Source of the DNA: Mobula hypostoma
Taxonomy: Eukaryota
DNA length: 64,000 nt
Direction of reading: 5' to 3'
Assembly: GCF_963921235.1 (NCBI RefSeq)
Contig: NC_086097.1
Coordinates: 7,812,001-7,876,000 of the forward strand
Shown here: positions 47,801-59,437 of the stretch, piece by piece
Position numbering within the stretch: position 1 is the first letter of the stretch
How the letters are laid out: each line of letters begins with the position of its first letter
The notes under the pieces: generated by a model
Seen by the model: the letters and a program-made list of their open reading frames with translations, nothing else
Database searches by the model: none
What the model was told of the DNA's origin: nothing
Program-made: the position numbers and the translations under genes

Positions 47801-49109
47801 TGCTTTCTTGGAGAAAATACGCTCCAATCAGTGTGTCAAGGGAAATTCAAAAGTGAAAAGCGTTTTTCCCTGAAGGTTTAGTGGGACCAAGCTCTGATGT
47901 ATCCATATGGATTGAAGGTATTTATACTAGAGCCATACTTGACACGGGTTCCTAAGTTACTTTACTTTACGGATCCTTTTACAAACAGTTTTTGACACAT
48001 TTACCATTGATGCCACACAGTGCCCTTGAGATTTGTGGGCTTAGTGCTGATGATTACCTGTATGATTTGACAGCAACGCAGACACAGTAGAAGCCTTGGT
48101 ATGCAAGGGGATTGGGAAAAACAGGTTGGTGTCGGATCACAAGAGAGGGAATTTGTTCAATGCCTATGAGATCGTTTTTTCGAGCAGCTTGTGCTTGAGC
48201 CAGCTCAGGAAAAGGTTATCACAAATTGGATGTTGAGTAATAATCCAGGTTCTATTAGGAAGCTTCAGGTAAAGGAATCCTTAGGAGGCAGTGATCATAA
48301 TATAATTGAATTCATACCGCAATCTAAGAGTGAGAAGAATAAGTCAGATGTTTTAGTATCGCAATAGAATAAAGGCAATTACGGAGGCATGAGAGATGGG
48401 CTTGCTCAGGTGGATTGGAGGGGGATGCTGGCAAGGATGACAGCAGTGTAGAGATGACTAAAGTTTCTAGGAATAATTCACAAGGCACAGGTTAGATATG
48501 TCTCACAGAAGAAAAAGTTCTCAAAGGCAGGGGCAAGCAACCGTGGATGCCAAGGGAAGTTAAGGACTGCATAAAAGCCAAGGAAAGGGCATATAATATA
48601 GCAAACGTGACTGGGAAGTTGGCTGATTGGGAATTTTTTTATATCCCAAAAGAGGCAATTAAAGAAGCCGTATGAATGAAAAGGTGAATTCTGAGGGCAA
48701 GCTAGCTAATAATATTAAGCAGAATACTAAAAGTTTTTTCAGTTATATAAAGAGTAAAAGGGAGGTGAGAATTGATATTGGACCATGGAAAATGACGCTG
48801 GTTAGGTAGTAATGAGGGACAAAGAAATGGCGGATGAACTTAATGAGTATTTTGCATCAGTCTTCGCTGTGGAAGATACTGCCAGTGTGTCAGAGGTTTG
48901 TGAGTGTCAGGGAGCAGGAGTGAGAATCATTGATATTACAAAGGAAAAAGTGCCAGGCAAACTCAAAAATGTCTTAAGGTGGACAAGTCATCTGGATCAG
49001 AGGGACTACATCCCAGAGTCTTACCATAGAACCATAGAACCATAGAAACTACAGCACAGAATCAGGCCCTTTGGCCCTTCTTGGCTGTGCCGAACCATTT
49101 TCTGCCCAG

Positions 49110-52057
49110 TCCCACTGACCTGCACACGGACCATATCCCTCCATACACCTCCCAGCCATGTATCTGTCCAATTTATTCTTAAATGTTAAAAAAGAACCCG
49201 CATTTACCACCTCGTCTGGCAGCTCATTCCATACTCCCACCACTCTCTGTGTGAAGAAGCCCCCCTAATGTTCCCTTTAAACTTTTCCCCCCTCACCCTT
49301 AACCCACGTCCTCTGGTTTTTTTCTCCCCTTGCCTCAGTGGAAAAAGCCTGCTTGCATTCACTCTATCTATACCCATCATAATTTTATATACCTCTATCA
49401 AATCTCCCCTCATTCTTCTACACTCCAGGGAATAAAGTCCTAACCTATTCAACCTTTCTCTGTAACTGAGTTTCTCAAGTCCCGGCAACATCTTTGTAAA
49501 CCTTCTCTGCACTCTTTCAACCTTATTTATATCCTTCCTGTAGTTTAGTGACCAAAACTGAACACAATACTCCAGATTCGGCCTCACCAATGCCTTATAC
49601 AACCTTATCATAACATTCCAGCTCCTATACTCAATACTACGATTAATAAAGGCCAATGTACCAAAAACTCTCTTTACGACCCTATCTACCTGTGACGACA
49701 CTTTTAGGGAATTTTGTATCTGTATTCCCAGATCCCTCTGTTCCACTGCACTCCTCAGTGCCTTACCATTAATCCTGTATGTTCTATGTTGGTTTGTCCT
49801 TCCAACGTGCAATACTTCACACTTGTCAGTATTAAACTCCATCTGCCATTTTTCAGCCCATTTTTCCAGCTGGTCCAAGTCCCTCTGCAGGCTCTGAAAA
49901 CCTTCCTCACTGTCCACTACACCTCCAATCTTTGTATCATCAGCAAATTTGCTGATCCAATTTGCCACATTATCATCCAGATCATTGATATAGATGACAA
50001 ATAACAATGGACCCAGCACTGATCCCTGTGGCACACCACTAGTCACAGGCCTCCACTCAGAGAAGCAATTTTCTACCACCACTCTCTGGCTTCTTCCATC
50101 GAGCCAATGTCCAATCCAATTTACCACCTCTCCATGTATACCTAGCGAATGAATTTTCCTAACTAACCTCCCATGCGGGACCTTGTCAAAGGCCTTACTG
50201 AAGTCCATGTAGACAATATCCACTGCCTTCCCTTCATCCACTTTCCTGGTAACCTCCTCGAAAAACTCCCAACAGATTGGTCAAACATGACCCACCACGC
50301 ACAAAGCCATGTTGACTCTCCCTAATAAGCCCCTGTCTATCCAAATGCTTGTAGATTCTGTCTCTTAGTACTCCCTCCAATAACTTACCTACTACTGACG
50401 TTAAACTCACCGGCCTATAATTTCCCGGATTACTTTTCGATCCTTTTTTAAACAACGGAACAACATGAGCCACTCTCCAATCCTCCGGCACTTCACCCGT
50501 AGACAGCGACATTTTAAATATTTCTGCCAGGGCCCCCGCAATTTCAACACTAGTCTCCTTCAAGGTCCGAGGGAACACCCTGTCAAGTCCCGGGGATTTA
50601 TCCACTTTAATTTTCCTCAAGATAGCAAGCACCTCCTCCTTTTCAATCTGTACAGTTGCCATGGTCTCACTACTTGATTCCCTCAATTCCATAGATCTCA
50701 TGCCAATTTCCTTAGTAAATACAGACGCAAAAAGCCTATTTAAGATCTCCCCCATTTCCTTTGGTTCCGCACAAAGCCAACCACTCTGATCTTCAAGAGG
50801 ACCAATTTTATCCCTTACAATCCTTTTGCTCTTAATATACCTGTAAAAGCTCTTTGGATTATCCTTCACTTTGACTGCCAAGGCAACCTCATGTCTTCTT
50901 TTTGCCCTCCTGATTTCTTTCTTAAGTATATTCTTGCACTTCTTATACTCCTCAAGCACCTGATTTTCCCCCTGTTTCCTATACATTTCATACAACTCCC
51001 TCTTCTTCTTTATCAGAGTTGCAATATCCCTTGAGAACCAAGGTTCCTTATTCCTATTCAATTTGCCTTTAATCCTGACAGGAACATACAAACTCTGCAC
51101 TCTCAAAATTTCCCCTTTGAAGGCTTCCCACCTACCAATCACATCTTTGCCAGAGAACAACCTGTCCCAATCCACGCTTTTTAGATCCTTTCTCATTTCT
51201 TCAAATTTGGCCTTCTTCCAGTTCAGAACCTCAACCCTAGGACCAGATCTATCCTTGTCCATGATCAAATTGAAACTAATGGCGTTATGATCACTGGAAC
51301 CAAAGTGCTCCCCTACACAGACTTCCGTCACTTGCCCTAATTCGTTTCCTAACAGGAGATCCAATATTGCATCCCCTCTAGTTGGTCCCTCTATATACTG
51401 ATTTAGAAAACTTTCCTGAACACATTTTACAAACTCTAAACCATCTAGACCCCTAACAGTATGGGAGTCCCAATCAATGTATGGAAAATTAAAATCCCCT
51501 ACCACCACAACTTTATGTTTCCTGCAGTTGCCTGCTATCTCTCTGCAGATTTGCTCTTCCAAGTCTCGTTGACTATTGGGTGGTCTGTAATACAATCCCA
51601 CTAATGTGGCCATACCTTTCCTGTTTCTCAGCTCCACCCATAAGGACTCAGTAGACAAGCCCTCTAATCTGTCCTGCCTGAGCACTGCTGTAATATTTTC
51701 CCTAACAAGCAATGCTACTCCCCCACCTTTCATTCTTCTGCCTCGATCACATCTGAAACATCGGAACCCTGGAATATTAAGCTGCCAGTCCTGCCCCTCC
51801 TGTAGCCAAGTTTCACTAATTGCTACAACATCATAATTCCACGTGTCATTCCACGTGTCAATCCACGCTCTCAACTCATCCGCCTTCCCCGCAATACTCC
51901 TAACATTGAAATATATACACCTCAGAAGATTTTTACCACCACTCACAACCTTTCTATCAGCGGATTTGCTTAAACTTTCAACATCACTTATTTTCACCCC
52001 AGCCACACTGTCAGCTCTGGCACTCTGGTTCCCATTCCCCTGCAAATCTGGTTTAAA
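49110..52057 (-). pseudogene. CR1 ORF2p (APE endonuclease + reverse transcriptase), frameshifts near ~50265 and ~49260
   Basis: YFNVRSI, SETWL, YYRPP, GDFN, SDHN; YRPVSLTS, DFSKAFDKV, PQGSVLGP, FADD. Confidence 0.92.
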
Positions 52058-52970
52058 GCCTCCCCAATAGCACTAACAAACCTCCCTGAAAGGATATTGG
52101 TCCCCCTGTGGTTCAAGTGTAACCCGTCTCTCTTGTACAGGTCCCACCTGCCCCAGAAGAGGTCCCAATGATCCTGAAATCTGAAACCCTGCCCCCTACA
52201 CCAGTTCCTCAGCCACTTGTTCCTCCTCCAGAGCATCCTATTCTTACCCTCACTGGCACCTAGCACAGGTAGCAATCCTGAGATTACCACCCTTGAGGTC
52301 CTGCTTTTCAACTTCCTACCAAGCTCTCTATACTCACTGCCCAGGACCTCTTCACTCTTCCTTGCTATGTCATTGGTGCCTATGTGCACCACGACATCTG
52401 GCTGGTCACCCTCCCACTTCAGAATGTCATGCAATGGATCAGAGACATCCTTGACCCTGGCACCTGGGAGGCAACAAACCATCCTGGATTCTCTGTCACG
52501 ACCACAGAACCTCCTATCTGCACCTCTAACTATCGAGTCCCCTATCACTACCGCTCTCCTCTTTTTCCCCCCTCCCTTCTGCACTGCAGAGCCAGACTCA
52601 GTGCCAGAGATCCGGCTACTGCAGCTAGTCCCAGGTAAGTCATCCCCCCCAACAGTATCCAATGAGGTATACTTGTTGCTGAGGGGAATGGCCACAGGTG
52701 AACCCTGCTCTGCCTGTCCTTTCCTCTTCCCTCGCCTGACAGTGACCCAATTTCCTGTCCTCTGCTCCTTTGGCGTAACTACCTCCCTGTAGCTACGATC
52801 TATAATCTCCTCATTCTCCCGAATGATCCGCAGGTCATCCAGCTCCTGCTCCAGTTCCCTAACGCGGTTTGTCAGGAGCTGCAGCTGGATGCACTTCTTG
52901 CAGGTGTCGTTGTCAGGGACACCGGAGGGCTCCCTGACTTCCCACATCCTGCAAGAGGAGCATTCCAACA
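51994..52970 (-). CDS. CR1 ORF1p: zinc finger, coiled coil, SGNH/GDSL esterase domain
   Basis: CSSC..CKKC; LTNRVRELEQELDDL; VVIGDSIVRG, VVHIGTNDI, DGLHLN. Confidence 0.9.
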
Positions 52971-54455
52971 TCTTGAGAGAAGTTGCTGAAGAAATAACGG
53001 ATGCATCGGTCATGATCTTTCAAGAATCACTTGATTCTAGCATGGTTCCAAAAGACTGGAAATTGCAAATGTCAATCCACTCTTTAAGAAGGGAAGAAGA
53101 TGAAATAAAGGAAAGAAAGGCCATTTAGCCTATCTTCAGTGGTTGGGAAAGTGTTGGAGTCTATTATTAAGGATGAGGTTTCGAGATACTTGGAGTCTAA
53201 TGGTAACGCAAGTCAAAGTCAGCATGGTTTCTGTTTAGGGAAATCTTGCTTAACAAAACTGTTAGAATTTTACAAGGAAGTAACGAGTGTTGGGAGGGGG
53301 GTGGGTGCAAAGGAGAGACAATAGATGTCATTTACTTGGATTTTCACAAGGCATTTGATAAAGTGCTACACATGAGGCTGCTTAGCAAGATAAAATCTCA
53401 TAGCATTACAGGAAAGATACTGGCATGGATAGAGGAATGGCTGACAGGCAGGAGGCAGTGAATGGGAATAAATGGGTCTTTTCTGGTTGTCAGTGACTAA
53501 TGAAGTTCCGCAGGGGTCGGTGTTGGAAAAGTTTGTGGCAAAGTTTGCAGATGATATGAAAGTAGGTGGAGAGTTAGGTAGTGCTGAGGAAGCAAATTGC
53601 AGAAGGACTAAGACAAATTGGAAGAATAGACAAAAAAGCGGCAAATGGAATAGAGTGTTGGGAAATATATTATAAAGGAACAAAAGTGCTGGTAATTATC
53701 TAAATGAGGACAAAATTCAAACATCAGAGGTGCAGAGGGCATTCGGAGTCCTCGTGCAAGACTCCCAGAAGGTTACTTTACAGGGTGAGTCTGTGAGAAA
53801 GAAGGCAAGTGCAATGTTGGCATTCATTTCAAGGGGAATAGAATATAAAAACAAGGAGAAAATGCTGAGGCTTTATAAGACAATAATCAGACTGCACTTG
53901 GGGTATTGTCAACAGTTTTGGGCCCCATAGCTCAGAAAATATGTGTTGTCATTGCAGAACGCCCAGAGGTGGTTCAGGAGGATGATTCTGGTAATGAAGG
54001 GGTTAACACGCGAGTAGCATTTGGCAGCTTTGGGTCTGTACTCACAGGAATTTAGAAGAATGAGGGGAGATCTTATTGAAACCTACTGAATGTTGAAAGG
54101 ACTAGATAAGGTGGATGCGGAAAGGATGTTCCCTGTGGTGGGATTGTCCAGGACTAGAGGGCACAGCCTCAAAATTGAGGGGTGACCCATTAGAACAGAG
54201 GTAAGGAGGAATATTTTTAGCCAGAGAGTTGTGAATCTGTGGAATGCTCTGTCACAGACATCTGTGAAGGCCAAGATATTGGGTATATTGAAAGCAAAAA
54301 TTGATAGTTTCCTAATTGGTCAGAGCATCAAAAGTTATGGCAAGAAGGCAGGTCTTTGGAATTGAGTGAGTTCTGGGATCAGCCATGATGGAATGGTGGA
54401 GCGGACTCAATGGGCTGAATGGCCTAATTCTGCTCTATGTTTTATGGTCTTATGA

Positions 54456-56470: not shown

Positions 56471-58938
56471 TCGTGAGGGTGAGGGACTCGGATGTACTCT
56501 GTTCTTTCAGGAAACTATTTTCCTACCTTGAATGGCCTTGATATGCTCTCTTGATTTTAACATCCACATTATCTCCCCTCTCATATCTTTTCTTTGTGGG
56601 TAGATTATTCCATAGCTTTCATAACTCCAAGGAAAGCAGTGCAATATTCTCATAATCTGAGGCCCATTTTATCTACACATTTGATGTGGCATGATGTCAT
56701 TTAAAACAGTATTTTACTCAATGTGTCCTCTCCCTCAAGTCACACCGTGATACTTGTCCTCTCTTTCTGTGATGCTGTGTGCAAGCTGTGTACGAAGCAG
56801 TTCAGAATCAGAATCAGGTTTATTATCACCAGCATGTGTAGTGAAATTTGTTAACTTAGCAGCAGCAGTTCAATGCAATGCATAATGTAGAAGAAAAAAT
56901 GTAAAAATAAATAAGTAAATCAATTACAGTATATATATATTGAATAGATCAAAAATCATGCAAAAATAGAATTAATGTATATTAAAAGTTGAGTTTGAGT
57001 GTAATCTTCAGAATTAATCAAAGTGCTGAGTATTTGGCTGGGATACAGTGATCCAGTGATTGGAGGATCTGAGGAAATGGACGAATCTGTATTAACATGC
57101 ATACTTTAATTTAGAGAATGTCTGATTACTTTTTTCAACAACGTTGAGGTTAAATGTCAATTTCTTTGCTTGGCAGTGATATGAGACAGTGGGTCATTTG
57201 TCTATTACAGGCTGTGTTATCATGCTGACAGTAATATTGCAAAATAGGTCACTCATCTGTCAATTTCATCCCTTGAGGAGGAACATGGGAGAGTAGATTG
57301 CTCATTTGTTACAGTCAATTTCATAACCCAGGTAGCGGATGGCATGTCTGTTACAGTACACATCTGCCATAATTTGACTTTAAAGAATGGCGATCCAACT
57401 GTTTAAAATTCATCAGCTCCTGCCTCCTGACGTACTGCTCACCAGTTTCATGTTAGGCAGTTTCCCTAAGTATTCAGTTACTCACTGCCTTACTTAAACA
57501 AAAATTAAGCAAACATTTAAGCAAAATAATGCTTACTTAAGCAAAAAAAAGCAAAAATTACTTACTAATTTAAACCTATCACCCCAACTGAGGCATAGGC
57601 TGCCAATAGTAGTTTGCCAGAGTCCTCTATCCTGGGCCAGTCTTTCATGTTGTCTACAGGGGTAGCATATCATCCTGTCCTGGTGTATCTTTGCTCTCTT
57701 GGACATGGAGTCTTTGGAGATTCTCCTGGCGTTTCTGTAGCACTGGGTTTTTATGAGCTGAGGTGGCTAGCTCCATGCCAAACCCTCCTGATTTCACGGC
57801 GGGGCTGGGAACATAAGACCACAGAAGTAACTTTAGGCCGTTTGGCCTGTCAAGTCTGCTCCACCATTCAATTATGGGTGATCCTTTTTTTACCTCCTCA
57901 GCCACATTCCCTGGTCTTCTCCCATAACGTTTGATGCCACATCCAATCAGGAACCTATCAAGATCTGCCTTAAATACACCAAATTACCTGGCCTCCACAG
58001 CCGCCTGTGGTAATAAATTCCACAAAATCACCACCCTCTGGCTAAAGAAATTTCTCCATATCCCTGATTTAAAAGGACATCCCTCTATTCTGAGGCTGTG
58101 CCCTCTTGTCCAAGGCTCACCCACCATGGGAACCATTATTTCCACATCTACTTTGTCTAGGCCTTTCAACATTTGAAAGACTTCAATGAGATTCCACCTC
58201 ATCCTTCTAAATTCCAGTAAGTACAGACACAGAGATATCAAACATTCCCTGTGTGATAAGTTTTTCATTCCTGGAATCATCCTTGTGAGCCTTCTCTGGA
58301 CCCTTTCCAACGCCAGCACATCATTTTTCAGATGGGGAGCCAACTACTATTCACAATACTCAAAGTGAGGCCTCTCCAGTGCCTTATAAAATCTCAGCAT
58401 CAAAAACATCCTTGCTCTTCTATTCTAGGTCTATTCTAGACCTCTTGAAATGAATGCTAGCATTGCATTTGCCTTCCTTACCCCCAACTGTACCTGCAAG
58501 TTAGCCTTTAGAATGTTCAGCATAAGGACTCCCAAATCCCTTTGCATCTCAGATATTTGGATTTTCTCCCCATTTAGAAAAAAGACTGCATATTTATTTC
58601 TTCTTCTAAAGTGCAAGGCCATATGTTTTCCAGCATTGTATTTCATTTGCCACTTTCTTGCCCATTCTCCAAAACCTAATCCTAATGAATGCGTGGCTGA
58701 GAGACTGGTGTAGGGGACAGGGCTTCAGATTCTTGGATAATTGGGATCTCTTCTGTGGGAAGTATGACCTGTTCAAAAAGGACAGGTTACACCTGAACCC
58801 GAAGGGGACCAATATCCTGGCGCGAAAGTTTAATAGAGCTGTTAGGGAGGGTTTAAACTCATTTGGCAGGGGGATGGGAACCGGAATGATAGACCAGAGG
58901 AAGGGGAAAACAGATATAAACCTAAGATAATGAGCAGT

Positions 58939-59437
58939 TGGTTGTTCGTCCATCGTTGACGTCGATGAGGACCTGGACACCATTATGATGGTGTCGAGAC
59001 TAGCGCATGATTTGGATTTAAGTGAGGGAGAGTTGCGCAGCATCAGCCTCACTCTCTCTTCTCAATTCCCATCTGGATCCAGTGGCAAGACAGAGACTAG
59101 ACGGCTGGAGATGGGACAAGGCGCAGTGGATGACCAGGACGTCTTCTGTGTCTTGTCCTGCTCTACACGTTCCATGACGCTTGCAGAGACCGCCTTCTTG
59201 ACCGTTGGACCTTCCATTGGTCTCGTCCGCTCAATCCGCCGGAGTCTGTCTTCACATGCTGGGATAGACAACTCCCTATCTCACCGAGGGTTTGAGACCC
59301 GTCGGCTACCCTCACCTGGTTTAGCCGGCTTGTCGAAGCCATTGCCCGGGGTGTGGCTGCTGTCGCATGCAAACAGCTACGGGGAGCCACAGGTGAGAAC
59401 TGAGTGCCAGGTGGGGACCAAAGGTGGACTAACCACA
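58939..59437 (-). mobile_element. Ribozyme-headed non-autonomous retroelement, copy 2 (almost full length)
   Basis: TSD TGAGCAGT at 58931-58938 and 59439-59446; inserted into the start of CR1 ORF2. Confidence 0.9.
59311..59437 (-). ncRNA. HDV-like ribozyme fold with L3 hairpin insertion
   Basis: P2 CUCACCUGU/AC(C)AGGUGAG; P3 GGC/GCC; L3 UCCCCGUA; GGGCAA; P4 UGGCUU-CGAC-AAGCCG; J4/2 GCUAA. Confidence 0.72.

Follow-up and report, generated by a model that had tools for sequence, protein, structure and literature searches.

The boundary between ORF1 and ORF2 of a CR1 retrotransposon from Mobula hypostoma carries a slippery heptamer, U_UUA_AAC, in phase at the very end of ORF1, and this boundary is probably the ORF1/ORF2 recoding junction of LINEs of the CR1 group that have an esterase-type ORF1. 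In the family to which the copy belongs, the heptamer is followed directly by a stop codon and then, at a fixed distance, by a G-rich motif. We judge it fairly likely that the arrangement directs programmed −1 frameshifting beside the stop, which would give an ORF1-ORF2 fusion protein.

Organization of the CR1 copy

The features discussed here lie in a window of 64,000 nucleotides, by which we mean the whole stretch of DNA that was analysed.

49023..52975, minus strand: defective copy of a young CR1 LINE, “family 1”, ~3.95 kb (5′ limit from sister similarity, 3′ limit from an 8-nt tandem repeat)
52051..52971, minus strand: ORF1 in its family form, from ATG at 52971..52969 to ...GEALN, 307 codons (Pfam, homologues)
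52073..52075, minus strand: TAG in the −1 (ORF2) frame, five codons 5′ of the heptamer (sequence, sisters)
52051..52057, minus strand: slippery heptamer U_UUA_AAC, in phase with ORF1 as gcU UUA AAC (sequence)
52048..52050, minus strand: ORF1 stop position, CAG in the window copy and TAG in the family (sisters, public runs)
52027..52040, minus strand: G-rich motif, GGGGAAUGGGAACC in the window copy and GGGGGAUGGGAACC in the family, starting 10 nt after the heptamer (sisters, runs)
50234..52072, minus strand: ORF2 part a, with linker, APE (~51913..51287) and start of RT (ORF scan, Pfam)
51836..51859, minus strand: 12-nt in-frame tandem duplication within the APE region, private to this copy, GACACGTGGAAT x2 (sister comparison)
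51731..51733, minus strand: first AUG of the ORF2 frame (RRMKGGG), codon 114, inside APE (sequence)
49204..50280, minus strand: ORF2 part b, remaining RT and C-terminus, RVT_1 E 6.1e-25 (ORF scan, Pfam)
49023..49047, minus strand: 3′-terminal 8-nt tandem repeat, ACCATAGA x3.1 on the plus strand (repeat search)
58852..58861, plus strand: junction of a second, diverged CR1 copy, “family 2”, ggU_UUA_AAC then TCA (motif scan of the window)

Domain order, an esterase ORF1 and the 3′ repeat place the element, on sequence criteria, in the CR1 clade of LINEs with an esterase-type ORF1. The N-terminus of ORF1 resembles a zinc knuckle, and Pfam detects a GDSL/SGNH esterase domain (PF13472, E 4.6e-12, 47.2 bits versus a Pfam cutoff of 32.9); according to PMC13343379, no ORF1 type other than the esterase form is identifiable in vertebrate CR1 and L2. 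ORF1 homologues of 296-315 aa share the same Leu-Asn end, and these terminal residues could matter to the ORF1 protein itself. At its 3′ end the copy carries short 8-nt tandem repeats, not poly(A); PMC2612034 mentions an octamer repeat at this end of CR1 elements.

Searches of the host genome (3.48 Gb) gave 1982 first-look candidates for sister copies of family 1, which are 98-99% alike across the junction. Eight of 29 sister loci extend to 52971-52975 and none extends beyond. Because sister similarity stops at this point, the open frame of ORF1 (341 codons) begins with 16 codons of flanking DNA.

The ORF bearing APE and RT lies in the −1 frame relative to ORF1 and is open across the heptamer, as the earlier note had read it and as Pfam and the ORF scan now confirm. 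Part a matches PF03372 (Exo_endo_phos, E 6.7e-17, residues 54-262) and the beginning of RVT_1 (residues 545-600). The length of ~600 codons that had been given for ORF2 is correct for the open frame (612 codons, 52072..50234), but the frame ends there only as the result of a frameshifting indel, near 50280, that disrupts the RT. Part b is in another frame owing to this private indel, which falls just after ...SCLTNL. The window copy is dead. Its APE region also carries the 12-nt tandem duplication, and 51859..51836 reads WIDTWNDTWNYDV where sisters have WIDTWNYDV.

The first AUG of the ORF2 frame falls downstream of the FNVRS and SETW motifs, as previously noted, and 60 residues into the Pfam APE match. 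This is not a peculiarity of the window copy. None of the 29 family 1 sisters has an ORF2-frame AUG before the FNARS motif, and several other families likewise lack one upstream of the APE motifs. An AUG ahead of the APE domain in the consensus, which the earlier note had listed among the outcomes that would count against its reading, is thus not what the family shows.

A slippery heptamer abuts the ORF1 stop codon

The phase of the heptamer is as first described: the minus strand at 52057..52051 ends ORF1 with gag gcT TTA AAC (E-A-L-N), which conforms to the X_XXY_YYZ rule for −1 slippery sites (PMC9426525). TTTAAAC is identical in all 29 family 1 sisters, and in all 29 the codon right after it is TAG. 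To read the letters at 52036 and 52050 we used contigs from four public runs, the RNA origin of three of which is a guess; such contigs drop rare variants and cannot show expression. Position 52050 is A on the plus strand (T on the minus strand) in all four runs at essentially all depth, and 52036 reads G. No differences are listed at the heptamer in these contigs, nor any insertions or deletions at the junction.

The overlap of ORF1 and ORF2 described in the earlier note, which measures 79 nt, is thus private to the window copy. Given the TAG after the heptamer in sisters and runs, together with the −1-frame TAG at 52075..52073, the overlap in the family is ~23 nt. The latter TAG is also the upstream limit of any productive −1 shift. 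Other families are built in the same way: in 25 of 28 copies a −1-frame stop precedes the heptamer by two or five codons.

Bare TTTAAAC is not rare, occurring 15 times in the window versus 13.06 expected, and 36 of 100 shuffles reach 15. This abundance, and the defective state of the window copy, would suit the view that a common 7-mer merely happens to fall in the overlap of a dead repeat copy. However, ~24 of the 16,384 heptamers fit X_XXY_YYZ (Z = A, C or U), which over ~5 in-phase positions in 23 nt amounts to ~0.7% per element, and the same site recurs in every lineage examined. Coincidence is already contradicted by this conservation and is extremely improbable. The signal resides in the phase, position and conservation of the heptamer rather than in its bare occurrence. 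Within ORF1 of family 1, UUA is a rare leucine codon (3/27).

The junction is conserved across CR1 families

The earlier note named synonymous loss of the heptamer in active subfamilies as an outcome that would tell against frameshifting. We find instead that most copies keep the heptamer in each of the diverged lineages sampled. Among family 2 sisters at loci with the anchor, 25 of 26 have the exact heptamer and all 26 have TAA directly after it. For a sample chosen independently of the heptamer, we took the first 30 of 20,445 genome matches to the ORF1 motif LHLNxxGTN (control 24). These copies span ~8 families, with ACU, AGU, GGU, GCU and GAU as preceding codons. The exact heptamer is present in 25 of the 30 and is in phase at a fixed offset in 22; three more copies hold one-letter variants (UUUAAAU twice, UUUAAAA once). 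A stop codon directly follows in 22 of the 25 with the exact heptamer.

Codon choice in the same 30 copies provides a synonymous control. In the LHLN motif 20 codons upstream, the first leucine is TTG in 16 and TTA in 13, the second is TTG in 19 and CTG in 10, and asparagine is AAT in 14 and AAC in 16. At the end of ORF1, by comparison, leucine is TTA in 25 and asparagine is AAC in 23, and the codon at −3 ends in T in 27 of 30.

More distant elements carry the same junction. In a second ORF1 clade (clade II, ~42% identity), whose junctions were read from short junction stretches only, the heptamer is exact in 16 of 19 and UAA is present in 18 of 19. Distant CR1 copies on metagenome contigs have the exact heptamer at 12 of 15 visible junctions and a stop directly after it at 12 of 15 (8 UAG, 2 UAA, 2 UGA), and in four of these loci the −1 frame is continuous from the heptamer into the APE motifs. 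Among 88 ORF1 protein tails, 77 have LN as their last residues, including named records from rays, skates, sharks, coelacanth, frogs, turtles and squamates; one tail ends in QGN. Twelve different residues precede LN at −3, yet just one of the 77 is a residue that has no NNU codon (Q, K, E, M, W), compared with 42 at −4 and 36 at −5. Many copies share ancestry, so none of these counts represents independent events.

A G-rich motif at fixed spacing, and little downstream structure

The G-tracts that had been remarked on downstream of the heptamer prove to be a conserved element with a fixed spacing of 10 nt, and other families share both the G-run and the spacing, as do clade II and metagenome copies. 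The pattern TTTAAAC-TAR-N7-GGGG has 26,223 matches in the genome versus 58 in the control. The full module, NNU_UUA_AAC followed by a stop, 7 nt and the G-run, recurs in ~8 diverged families of the 3.48-Gb genome. The rows of our 21-row junction alignment were chosen on heptamer and stop, and the alignment is therefore circular for those columns. In the ORF2 frame the motif encodes two glycines, both of which are GGG in all lineages, whereas GGG accounts for only 22 of 75 ORF2 glycine codons. This invariance points to a constraint at the RNA level, which need not be translational.

That last point would also suit a different view, in which ORF2 is expressed by some other means, for instance internal ribosome entry, transcriptional slippage, or an RNA that is spliced or subgenomic, and the block is kept for reasons unrelated to translation: the ORF1 protein might bind the RNA that encodes it, or its C-terminus might impose a requirement. 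Reviews leave room for it, in that how ORF2 is reached is called unclear for most LINEs (PMC3708506). However, the ORF2 frame is open from two to five codons before the heptamer into APE in several families, and the other two frames are rich in stops, indicating that decoding starts at the junction and not near APE. Counted by copy, 13 of 28, drawn from several families, have no stop in this frame between the heptamer and APE, the variable linker included. The junction also holds no homopolymer run on which a polymerase could slip, and the contigs of the four runs, which drop rare variants, list no indels there. We regard another route of this kind as very unlikely.

The earlier note could identify no convincing downstream pseudoknot, and our comparison with shuffled sequences agrees: over the 90 nt after the heptamer in 22 copies, the z-scores of minimum free energy (MFE) range from −1.3 to +1.7, and neither a hairpin nor a pseudoknot emerged that was stable or conserved. 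Inspection of the aligned junctions likewise revealed no helix common to the lineages. Small stems seen by eye are unshared: CCAGGC/GCCUGG is confined to some metagenome copies, GGAC/GUCC to L101 and L108, and GUU/AAC around the G-run to families A and B. A G-quadruplex at the G-rich motif was discarded as well, being predicted in only 4 of 18 copies. The usual spacer between heptamer and structure is given as 5-9 nt (PMC9426525), and the conserved G-run at 10 nt falls outside that range.

Frameshifting or reinitiation at the junction

Synonymous conservation of the heptamer and the AUG-less beginning of ORF2 support the frameshift interpretation that the earlier note had put forward, with all of the evidence coming from sequence. 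Under this interpretation, translation by most ribosomes would end at the ORF1 stop, yielding the esterase protein of ORF1. A minority would slip by −1 at U_UUA_AAC, where tRNA-Leu would re-pair from UUA to UUU and tRNA-Asn from AAC to AAA; these ribosomes would then read CUA (Leu) and enter ORF2, making a fusion of ORF1, APE and RT (...EALN-LDLQGDGN...). The adjacent stop and the G-rich motif may slow the ribosome at the slippery site; with the stop in the A site, the G-run would lie 7 nt from the stop codon and might act by binding a protein, by pairing with rRNA or by adopting an unusual fold. A low rate of shifting could be enough for a LINE.

Termination-reinitiation offers a different account of the same junction. 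Here all ribosomes would stop at the end of ORF1 and a fraction would stay bound and restart close by in the −1 frame, at an AUG if there is one and otherwise at a non-AUG codon, with UUUAAAC and the G-run as flanking signals for tethering or positioning, giving an ORF2 protein without an ORF1 part. The stop position is constant in all lineages and its identity varies (UAG, UAA, UGA), as this account would have it. Moreover, four reptile/bird-like metagenome copies (L092, L093, L097, L119) have an ORF2-frame AUG 2 or 3 nt after the stop, and in the metagenome copy L108 an AUG overlaps the stop. In clade II and in family 2, an ORF2-frame AUG upstream of APE comes ~45 nt and ~115 nt after the stop, respectively. 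Such AUG codons keep reinitiation alive as a rival. Family 1 of the window has no AUG near the stop; it carries UUG, the second codon after CUA, at the position that matches those AUGs. Precedents include the SART1 restart at UAAUG, which downstream RNA structure affects (PMC3894237, PMC3708506), and AUG-independent initiation, considered likely for L1 (PMC5009743).

Several observations run counter to reinitiation. It leaves unexplained why the last codons are UUA AAC with a preceding U, whatever amino acid precedes, and why these form a canonical X_XXY_YYZ site in phase. No start codon is consistent: by family, CUA is followed by GAU UUG, AUU UGG, GAA UGG, GAU ACA or AAU AGU. The AUG close after the stop is absent from L099 and L102, though present in their relatives. 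Reinitiation does not require the −1 frame, yet ORF2 is −1 in every lineage seen. The known calicivirus-type reinitiation signals, furthermore, lie upstream of the stop and not downstream. On balance, reinitiation appears possible but rather unlikely.

A lineage in which ORF1 and ORF2 are naturally fused and that has amplified was not found among three candidates. L173, with an open frame of 1097 aa, is represented by one copy, in which an additional G precedes the heptamer. The in-frame junction of L174 results from a private 5-nt deletion, its best relatives being 81-85% alike and mostly 5 nt longer, and P0032 is one fused gene model only.

Significance of the module

CR1-group elements are described as the dominant retrotransposons of most vertebrates, making up 22-34% of shark and ray genomes (PMC13343379), and the route to translation of the second gene is called unclear for most LINEs (PMC3708506; PMC3894237). 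The literature that we searched, which did not extend to key early CR1 papers, yielded no paper on CR1 frameshifting. The module of heptamer, stop and G-run, kept where ORF1 proteins are only ~30% identical, could provide a short, testable signal for expression of CR1 ORF2. It predicts an ORF1-ORF2 fusion protein and would explain the ORF2 gene models without start codons in these genomes. Should the G-rich motif prove to be a stimulator, the junction would be an example, in a cellular element, of a frameshift signal that works without RNA structure and may depend on a protein.

A more far-reaching proposal is that the block NNU_UUA_AAC-stop-N7-GGGGG(N1-2)RGGG is an ancient, structure-free recoding signal of esterase-type CR1 across jawed vertebrates, in which a protein bound to the G-motif, possibly the product of ORF1 or else a host factor with affinity for G-tracts, holds up the ribosome at the stop, such that levels of ORF1 protein switch ORF2 on. 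We consider this proposal unlikely. If true, it would mean that a cellular retrotransposon regulates its own −1 frameshift through a protein on which the shift depends.

Comparison with known recoding systems

Coronaviruses use the heptamer U_UUA_AAC, plus a pseudoknot, for the −1 frameshift between ORF1a and ORF1b. The CR1 junction has the identical heptamer in the same phase, with the polymerase ORF in the −1 frame. Unlike the coronavirus site, it has no pseudoknot or stable hairpin that we could find, its 0-frame stop abuts the heptamer, and it belongs to a nuclear retrotransposon, not an RNA virus. A closer parallel for the stop is barley yellow dwarf virus (BYDV), where a stop codon also adjoins the heptamer on its 3′ side and where low-level shifting in reporters depended on that stop (PMC9426525); BYDV differs in its heptamer, its adjacent structure and a distal element ~4 kb downstream. 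For the G-rich motif, the PRRSV nsp2 −2/−1 frameshift is instructive, as a linear CCCANCUCC motif located 11 nt downstream, to which nsp1beta-PCBP binds, acts in place of RNA structure (PMC9426525). Both systems have a conserved unstructured motif at 10-11 nt, where RNA structure would be expected. The CR1 motif is G-rich and is a candidate for such a role by inference, in contrast to the PRRSV motif with its known protein partner.

Among LINEs, TRE5-A and TRE3-A of Dictyostelium are said to need a −1 frameshift for ORF2 (PMC5911963). They are APE-type elements like CR1, but belong to a different LINE clade and host, and the likeness is one of description only. SART1 (UAAUG) and human L1 share with CR1 a bicistronic RNA in which ORF2 is reached from the region of the ORF1 stop, and a downstream element matters in SART1. 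However, neither has an in-phase slippery heptamer, and both make a separate ORF2 protein rather than a fusion. The proposed CR1 fusion would follow the logic of Gag-Pol in retroviruses and LTR retrotransposons, in which an abundant first protein is accompanied by a rare enzyme fusion. Because a LINE has no protease to free the enzymes, the CR1 fusion would have to act as such.

The CR1 copy in the window

The junction considered here belongs to a CR1 copy of family 1, a young LINE family, with the following features.

~52975 to 49023, minus strand: one CR1-type LINE copy, with esterase ORF1, APE and RT, and 3′ repeat
52971..52969, minus strand: ORF1 ATG of family 1; similarity to sister loci stops 1-4 nt upstream
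52057..52051, minus strand: heptamer TTTAAAC, in ORF1 codons gag gcT TTA AAC

In Pfam searches, ORF1 of this copy matches a GDSL/SGNH esterase (PF13472, E 4.6e-12), and the frame that follows matches an APE endonuclease domain (PF03372, E 6.7e-17) and then a reverse transcriptase; the 3′ terminus is an 8-nt tandem repeat. An earlier note, made from the sequence alone, proposed −1 frameshifting at U_UUA_AAC between the two frames, and its account of the layout is borne out in the following respects. Because the ORF1 codons are gag gcT TTA AAC, the heptamer is in X_XXY_YYZ phase. The APE/RT frame is −1 relative to ORF1, and its earliest AUG, at codon 114 of the open frame, falls 60 residues past the start of the Pfam APE match, too far downstream for an intact APE. 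The heptamer by itself is not unusual in the window (15 matches, 13.06 expected). The copy is dead: its ORF1 stop is mutated, 12 nt are duplicated within APE, and its RT is interrupted by an indel near 50280.

The family 1 junction

A junction search of the 3.48 Gb genome (200 contigs) gave at least 1982 family 1 candidates, of which 40 were scored at 98-100% identity. The codon 3′ of the heptamer is TAG in 29/29 sister loci and CAG in the window copy; the family ORF1 therefore terminates ...GEALN directly at the heptamer. In contigs from four public runs (four studies), nearly all the depth at 52050 supports the TAG letter; these contigs also have G at 52036, with no differences inside the heptamer and no insertions or deletions listed. 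A −1-frame TAG stands five codons 5′ of the heptamer, which together with the ORF1 stop after it defines a true overlap of ~23 nt, the heptamer being the final seven letters. The absence of an AUG ahead of APE, noted earlier for the window copy, extends to the family, as no sister (0/29) has an ORF2-frame AUG upstream of the FNARS motif.

One family 1 locus (L173, G000:C1:217919130-217919400) has an additional G in the G-run just upstream of the heptamer, which puts ORF1 and ORF2 in a single 1097-aa open frame. This one copy is a natural mimic of a −1 shift.

Other CR1 families

All CR1 copy counts in this work are of sequences of shared descent, so they do not represent independent events. 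Family 2, a diverged CR1 family with a window copy on the plus strand (58680 onward, 53% identity in the ORF1 tail), reads ggT TTA AAC TCA there. Among 26 anchored sisters, 25 have the exact heptamer and all 26 have TAA; the stop of the window copy is mutated from TAA to TCA. This copy also has ~470 nt between its junction and APE (58925-59400, plus strand) without counterpart there in sisters, probably an insertion or rearrangement.

A sample independent of the heptamer was drawn with the ORF1 motif LHLNxxGTN, whatever its codons (20,445 genome matches, versus 24 in a control) by taking the first 30 loci in genome order, which represent about 8 families. The exact heptamer is found in 25/30, in phase at a fixed offset in 22, with a stop directly 3′ in 22/25; variants are TTTAAAT (two) and TTTAAAA (one), and two old copies have no heptamer. 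The heptamer is conserved at synonymous positions, the check that the earlier note proposed: of 30 loci, 25 use TTA for the terminal Leu and 23 use AAC for the terminal Asn, while internal conserved codons in the same copies vary (Leu TTG 16/TTA 13, Leu TTG 19/CTG 10, Asn AAT 14/AAC 16). In the ORF1 of family 1, UUA makes up 3/27 Leu codons. The codon preceding UUA AAC is ACT, AGT, GGT, GCT or GAT, so that the amino acid varies and the U is retained; this −3 codon is T-ended in 27/30 loci, and the remaining three are indel-shifted. In 25/28 copies the −1 frame is closed by a stop 2 or 5 codons 5′ of the heptamer; in 13/28 it continues into the APE motifs. Another 11 loci chosen for rare motif variants gave four exact heptamers and otherwise decayed forms.

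In old copies of the 'LHLNWK/CR' type (L078, L085, L174, L177), the ORF1 frame is continuous with the ORF2-frame peptide because of small junction deletions, that of L174 being private.

Deeper relatives

Searching proteins with ORF1 as the query gave 157 matches, and the following figures concern the 120 listed. The ORF1 tail is present in 88, and 77/88 end in Leu-Asn, located 26 residues past the catalytic Asp in 72/77. Named ORF1 records among the matches listed come from rays, skates, sharks, coelacanth, frogs, turtles and squamates. Across 25 aligned ORF1 sequences of 30-65% identity, the terminal Leu never varies, and conservation of the Asn is at least 90%. Twelve residue identities precede Leu-Asn among the 77 tails, and residues lacking an NNU codon (Q, K, E, M, W) occupy this position in 1/77, versus 42/77 and 36/77 at the two preceding positions.

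Clade II, a second ORF1 clade in the M. hypostoma genome (about 42% identity), reads gcT TTA AAC TAA auagua GGGGGG, with the exact heptamer in 16/19 junctions and TAA in 18/19. A metagenome scan gave 63 loci; 19 were examined, and the junction was visible in 15. Twelve of these 15 have the exact heptamer, and in 12/15 the next codon after the heptamer or its variant is a stop (8 TAG, 2 TAA, 2 TGA), followed by a G-run. The −1 frame is continuous from the heptamer to the APE motifs in L092, L093, L097 and L099 and broken in L098, L108 and L110; the stretch available downstream in L101 lacks APE.

Many contigs of one record set among these loci (L091-L133) terminate within CR1 ORF1 or at its end, a pattern to be expected if the assembly collapses at a repeat that a eukaryotic host carries in high copy number. 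CR1 ORF1 also appears under unrelated names among the protein matches (P0014, P0093, P0027, P0068, P0069): a Pseudomonas aeruginosa 'SGNH/GDSL hydrolase' (4-kb contig, 64% identity), one protein from a flatworm that parasitises frogs, and, in rays, isoforms of ribosomal protein S24 and TMEM204. These records look like contamination or gene-model artefacts.

The downstream G-rich element

Each of the lineages above has four or more consecutive G (mostly GGGGG) starting 10 nt 3′ of the heptamer (one family: 9 nt), with RGGG following after one or two letters. The pattern TTTAAAC-TAR-N7-GGGG has 26,223 genome matches, versus 58 for its reversed control. A 21-row junction alignment was selected on heptamer and stop, so only its G-run columns are informative. 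Both Gly codons of the run in the ORF2 frame are GGG, which accounts for 22/75 Gly codons of the family 1 window ORF2. Predicted folding of the 90 nt 3′ of the heptamer is no more stable than that of shuffled sequences (z −1.3 to +1.7, 22 copies), a G-quadruplex is predicted at the motif in just 4/18 copies, and no helix common to different lineages was found downstream.

In the region of 52008-52034 (minus strand), the sisters have an ORF1-frame AUG inside the G-rich motif (GGGGGAUGGGAAC); this AUG starts a 13-codon mini-ORF just past the ORF1 stop (AUG GGA ACC ... UGA).

Access to ORF2

ORF2 is always in the −1 frame, which opens 2-5 codons 5′ of the heptamer, and the linker is open from the junction to APE. 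The stop adjoins the heptamer while varying in identity (TAG, TAA, TGA), and several families have no AUG ahead of APE. We consider it reasonably likely, from these sequence patterns, that ORF2 is expressed by programmed −1 frameshifting: ribosomes would shift at the heptamer abutting the ORF1 stop, with the G-run 7 nt away when that stop is in the A site. Such a mechanism would account for the heptamer, adjacent stop, −1 frame, open linker, G-rich motif at fixed distance and absent AUG, and not for the nature of the stimulator. According to PMC9426525, BYDV likewise has a stop abutting its heptamer, and PRRSV uses a linear motif 11 nt downstream in place of RNA structure, compared with 10 nt for the CR1 G-run. 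For the Dictyostelium LINEs TRE5-A and TRE3-A, a −1 frameshift is stated for ORF2 (PMC5911963).

The main alternative, termination-reinitiation at the ORF1 stop, seems rather unlikely. An ORF2-frame AUG does lie 2 or 3 nt past the stop in L092, L093, L097 and L119, overlaps it in L108, and follows it by ~45 nt in clade II and ~115 nt in family 2. Haas et al. 1997, as cited in PMC4316615, has 'two closely spaced' ORFs in its title, and ORF2 is reached from the ORF1 stop in SART1 (PMC3894237, PMC3708506) and L1 (PMC5009743). However, no start codon is common to the lineages, and reinitiation leaves the heptamer, its phase and the constant −1 frame unaccounted for.

Full-text searches, with the earliest CR1 papers and curated repeat libraries outside their scope, found no paper on CR1 and ribosomal frameshifting, and none joining TTTAAAC, non-LTR elements and frameshifting. 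The CR1 junction is not described in the available portions of PMC5009743, PMC3894237, PMC3708506, PMC13343379, PMC4120745, PMC4316615, PMC11303007 or PMC2734521; early CR1 papers may contain a description.

Copy ends and fragments

Sister similarity ends at 52971-52975 (minus strand) in 8/29 loci (L010, L012, L013, L015, L017, L019, L026, L027) and extends beyond 52975 in none of the 29. Family 1 would thus have either almost no common 5′UTR or 5′ regions that vary among subfamilies. The 64-kb window also holds at least 15 CR1 ORF2 fragments (12244-63061, both strands; 27-93% identity to the window copy), mostly 5′-truncated and some nested within one another.
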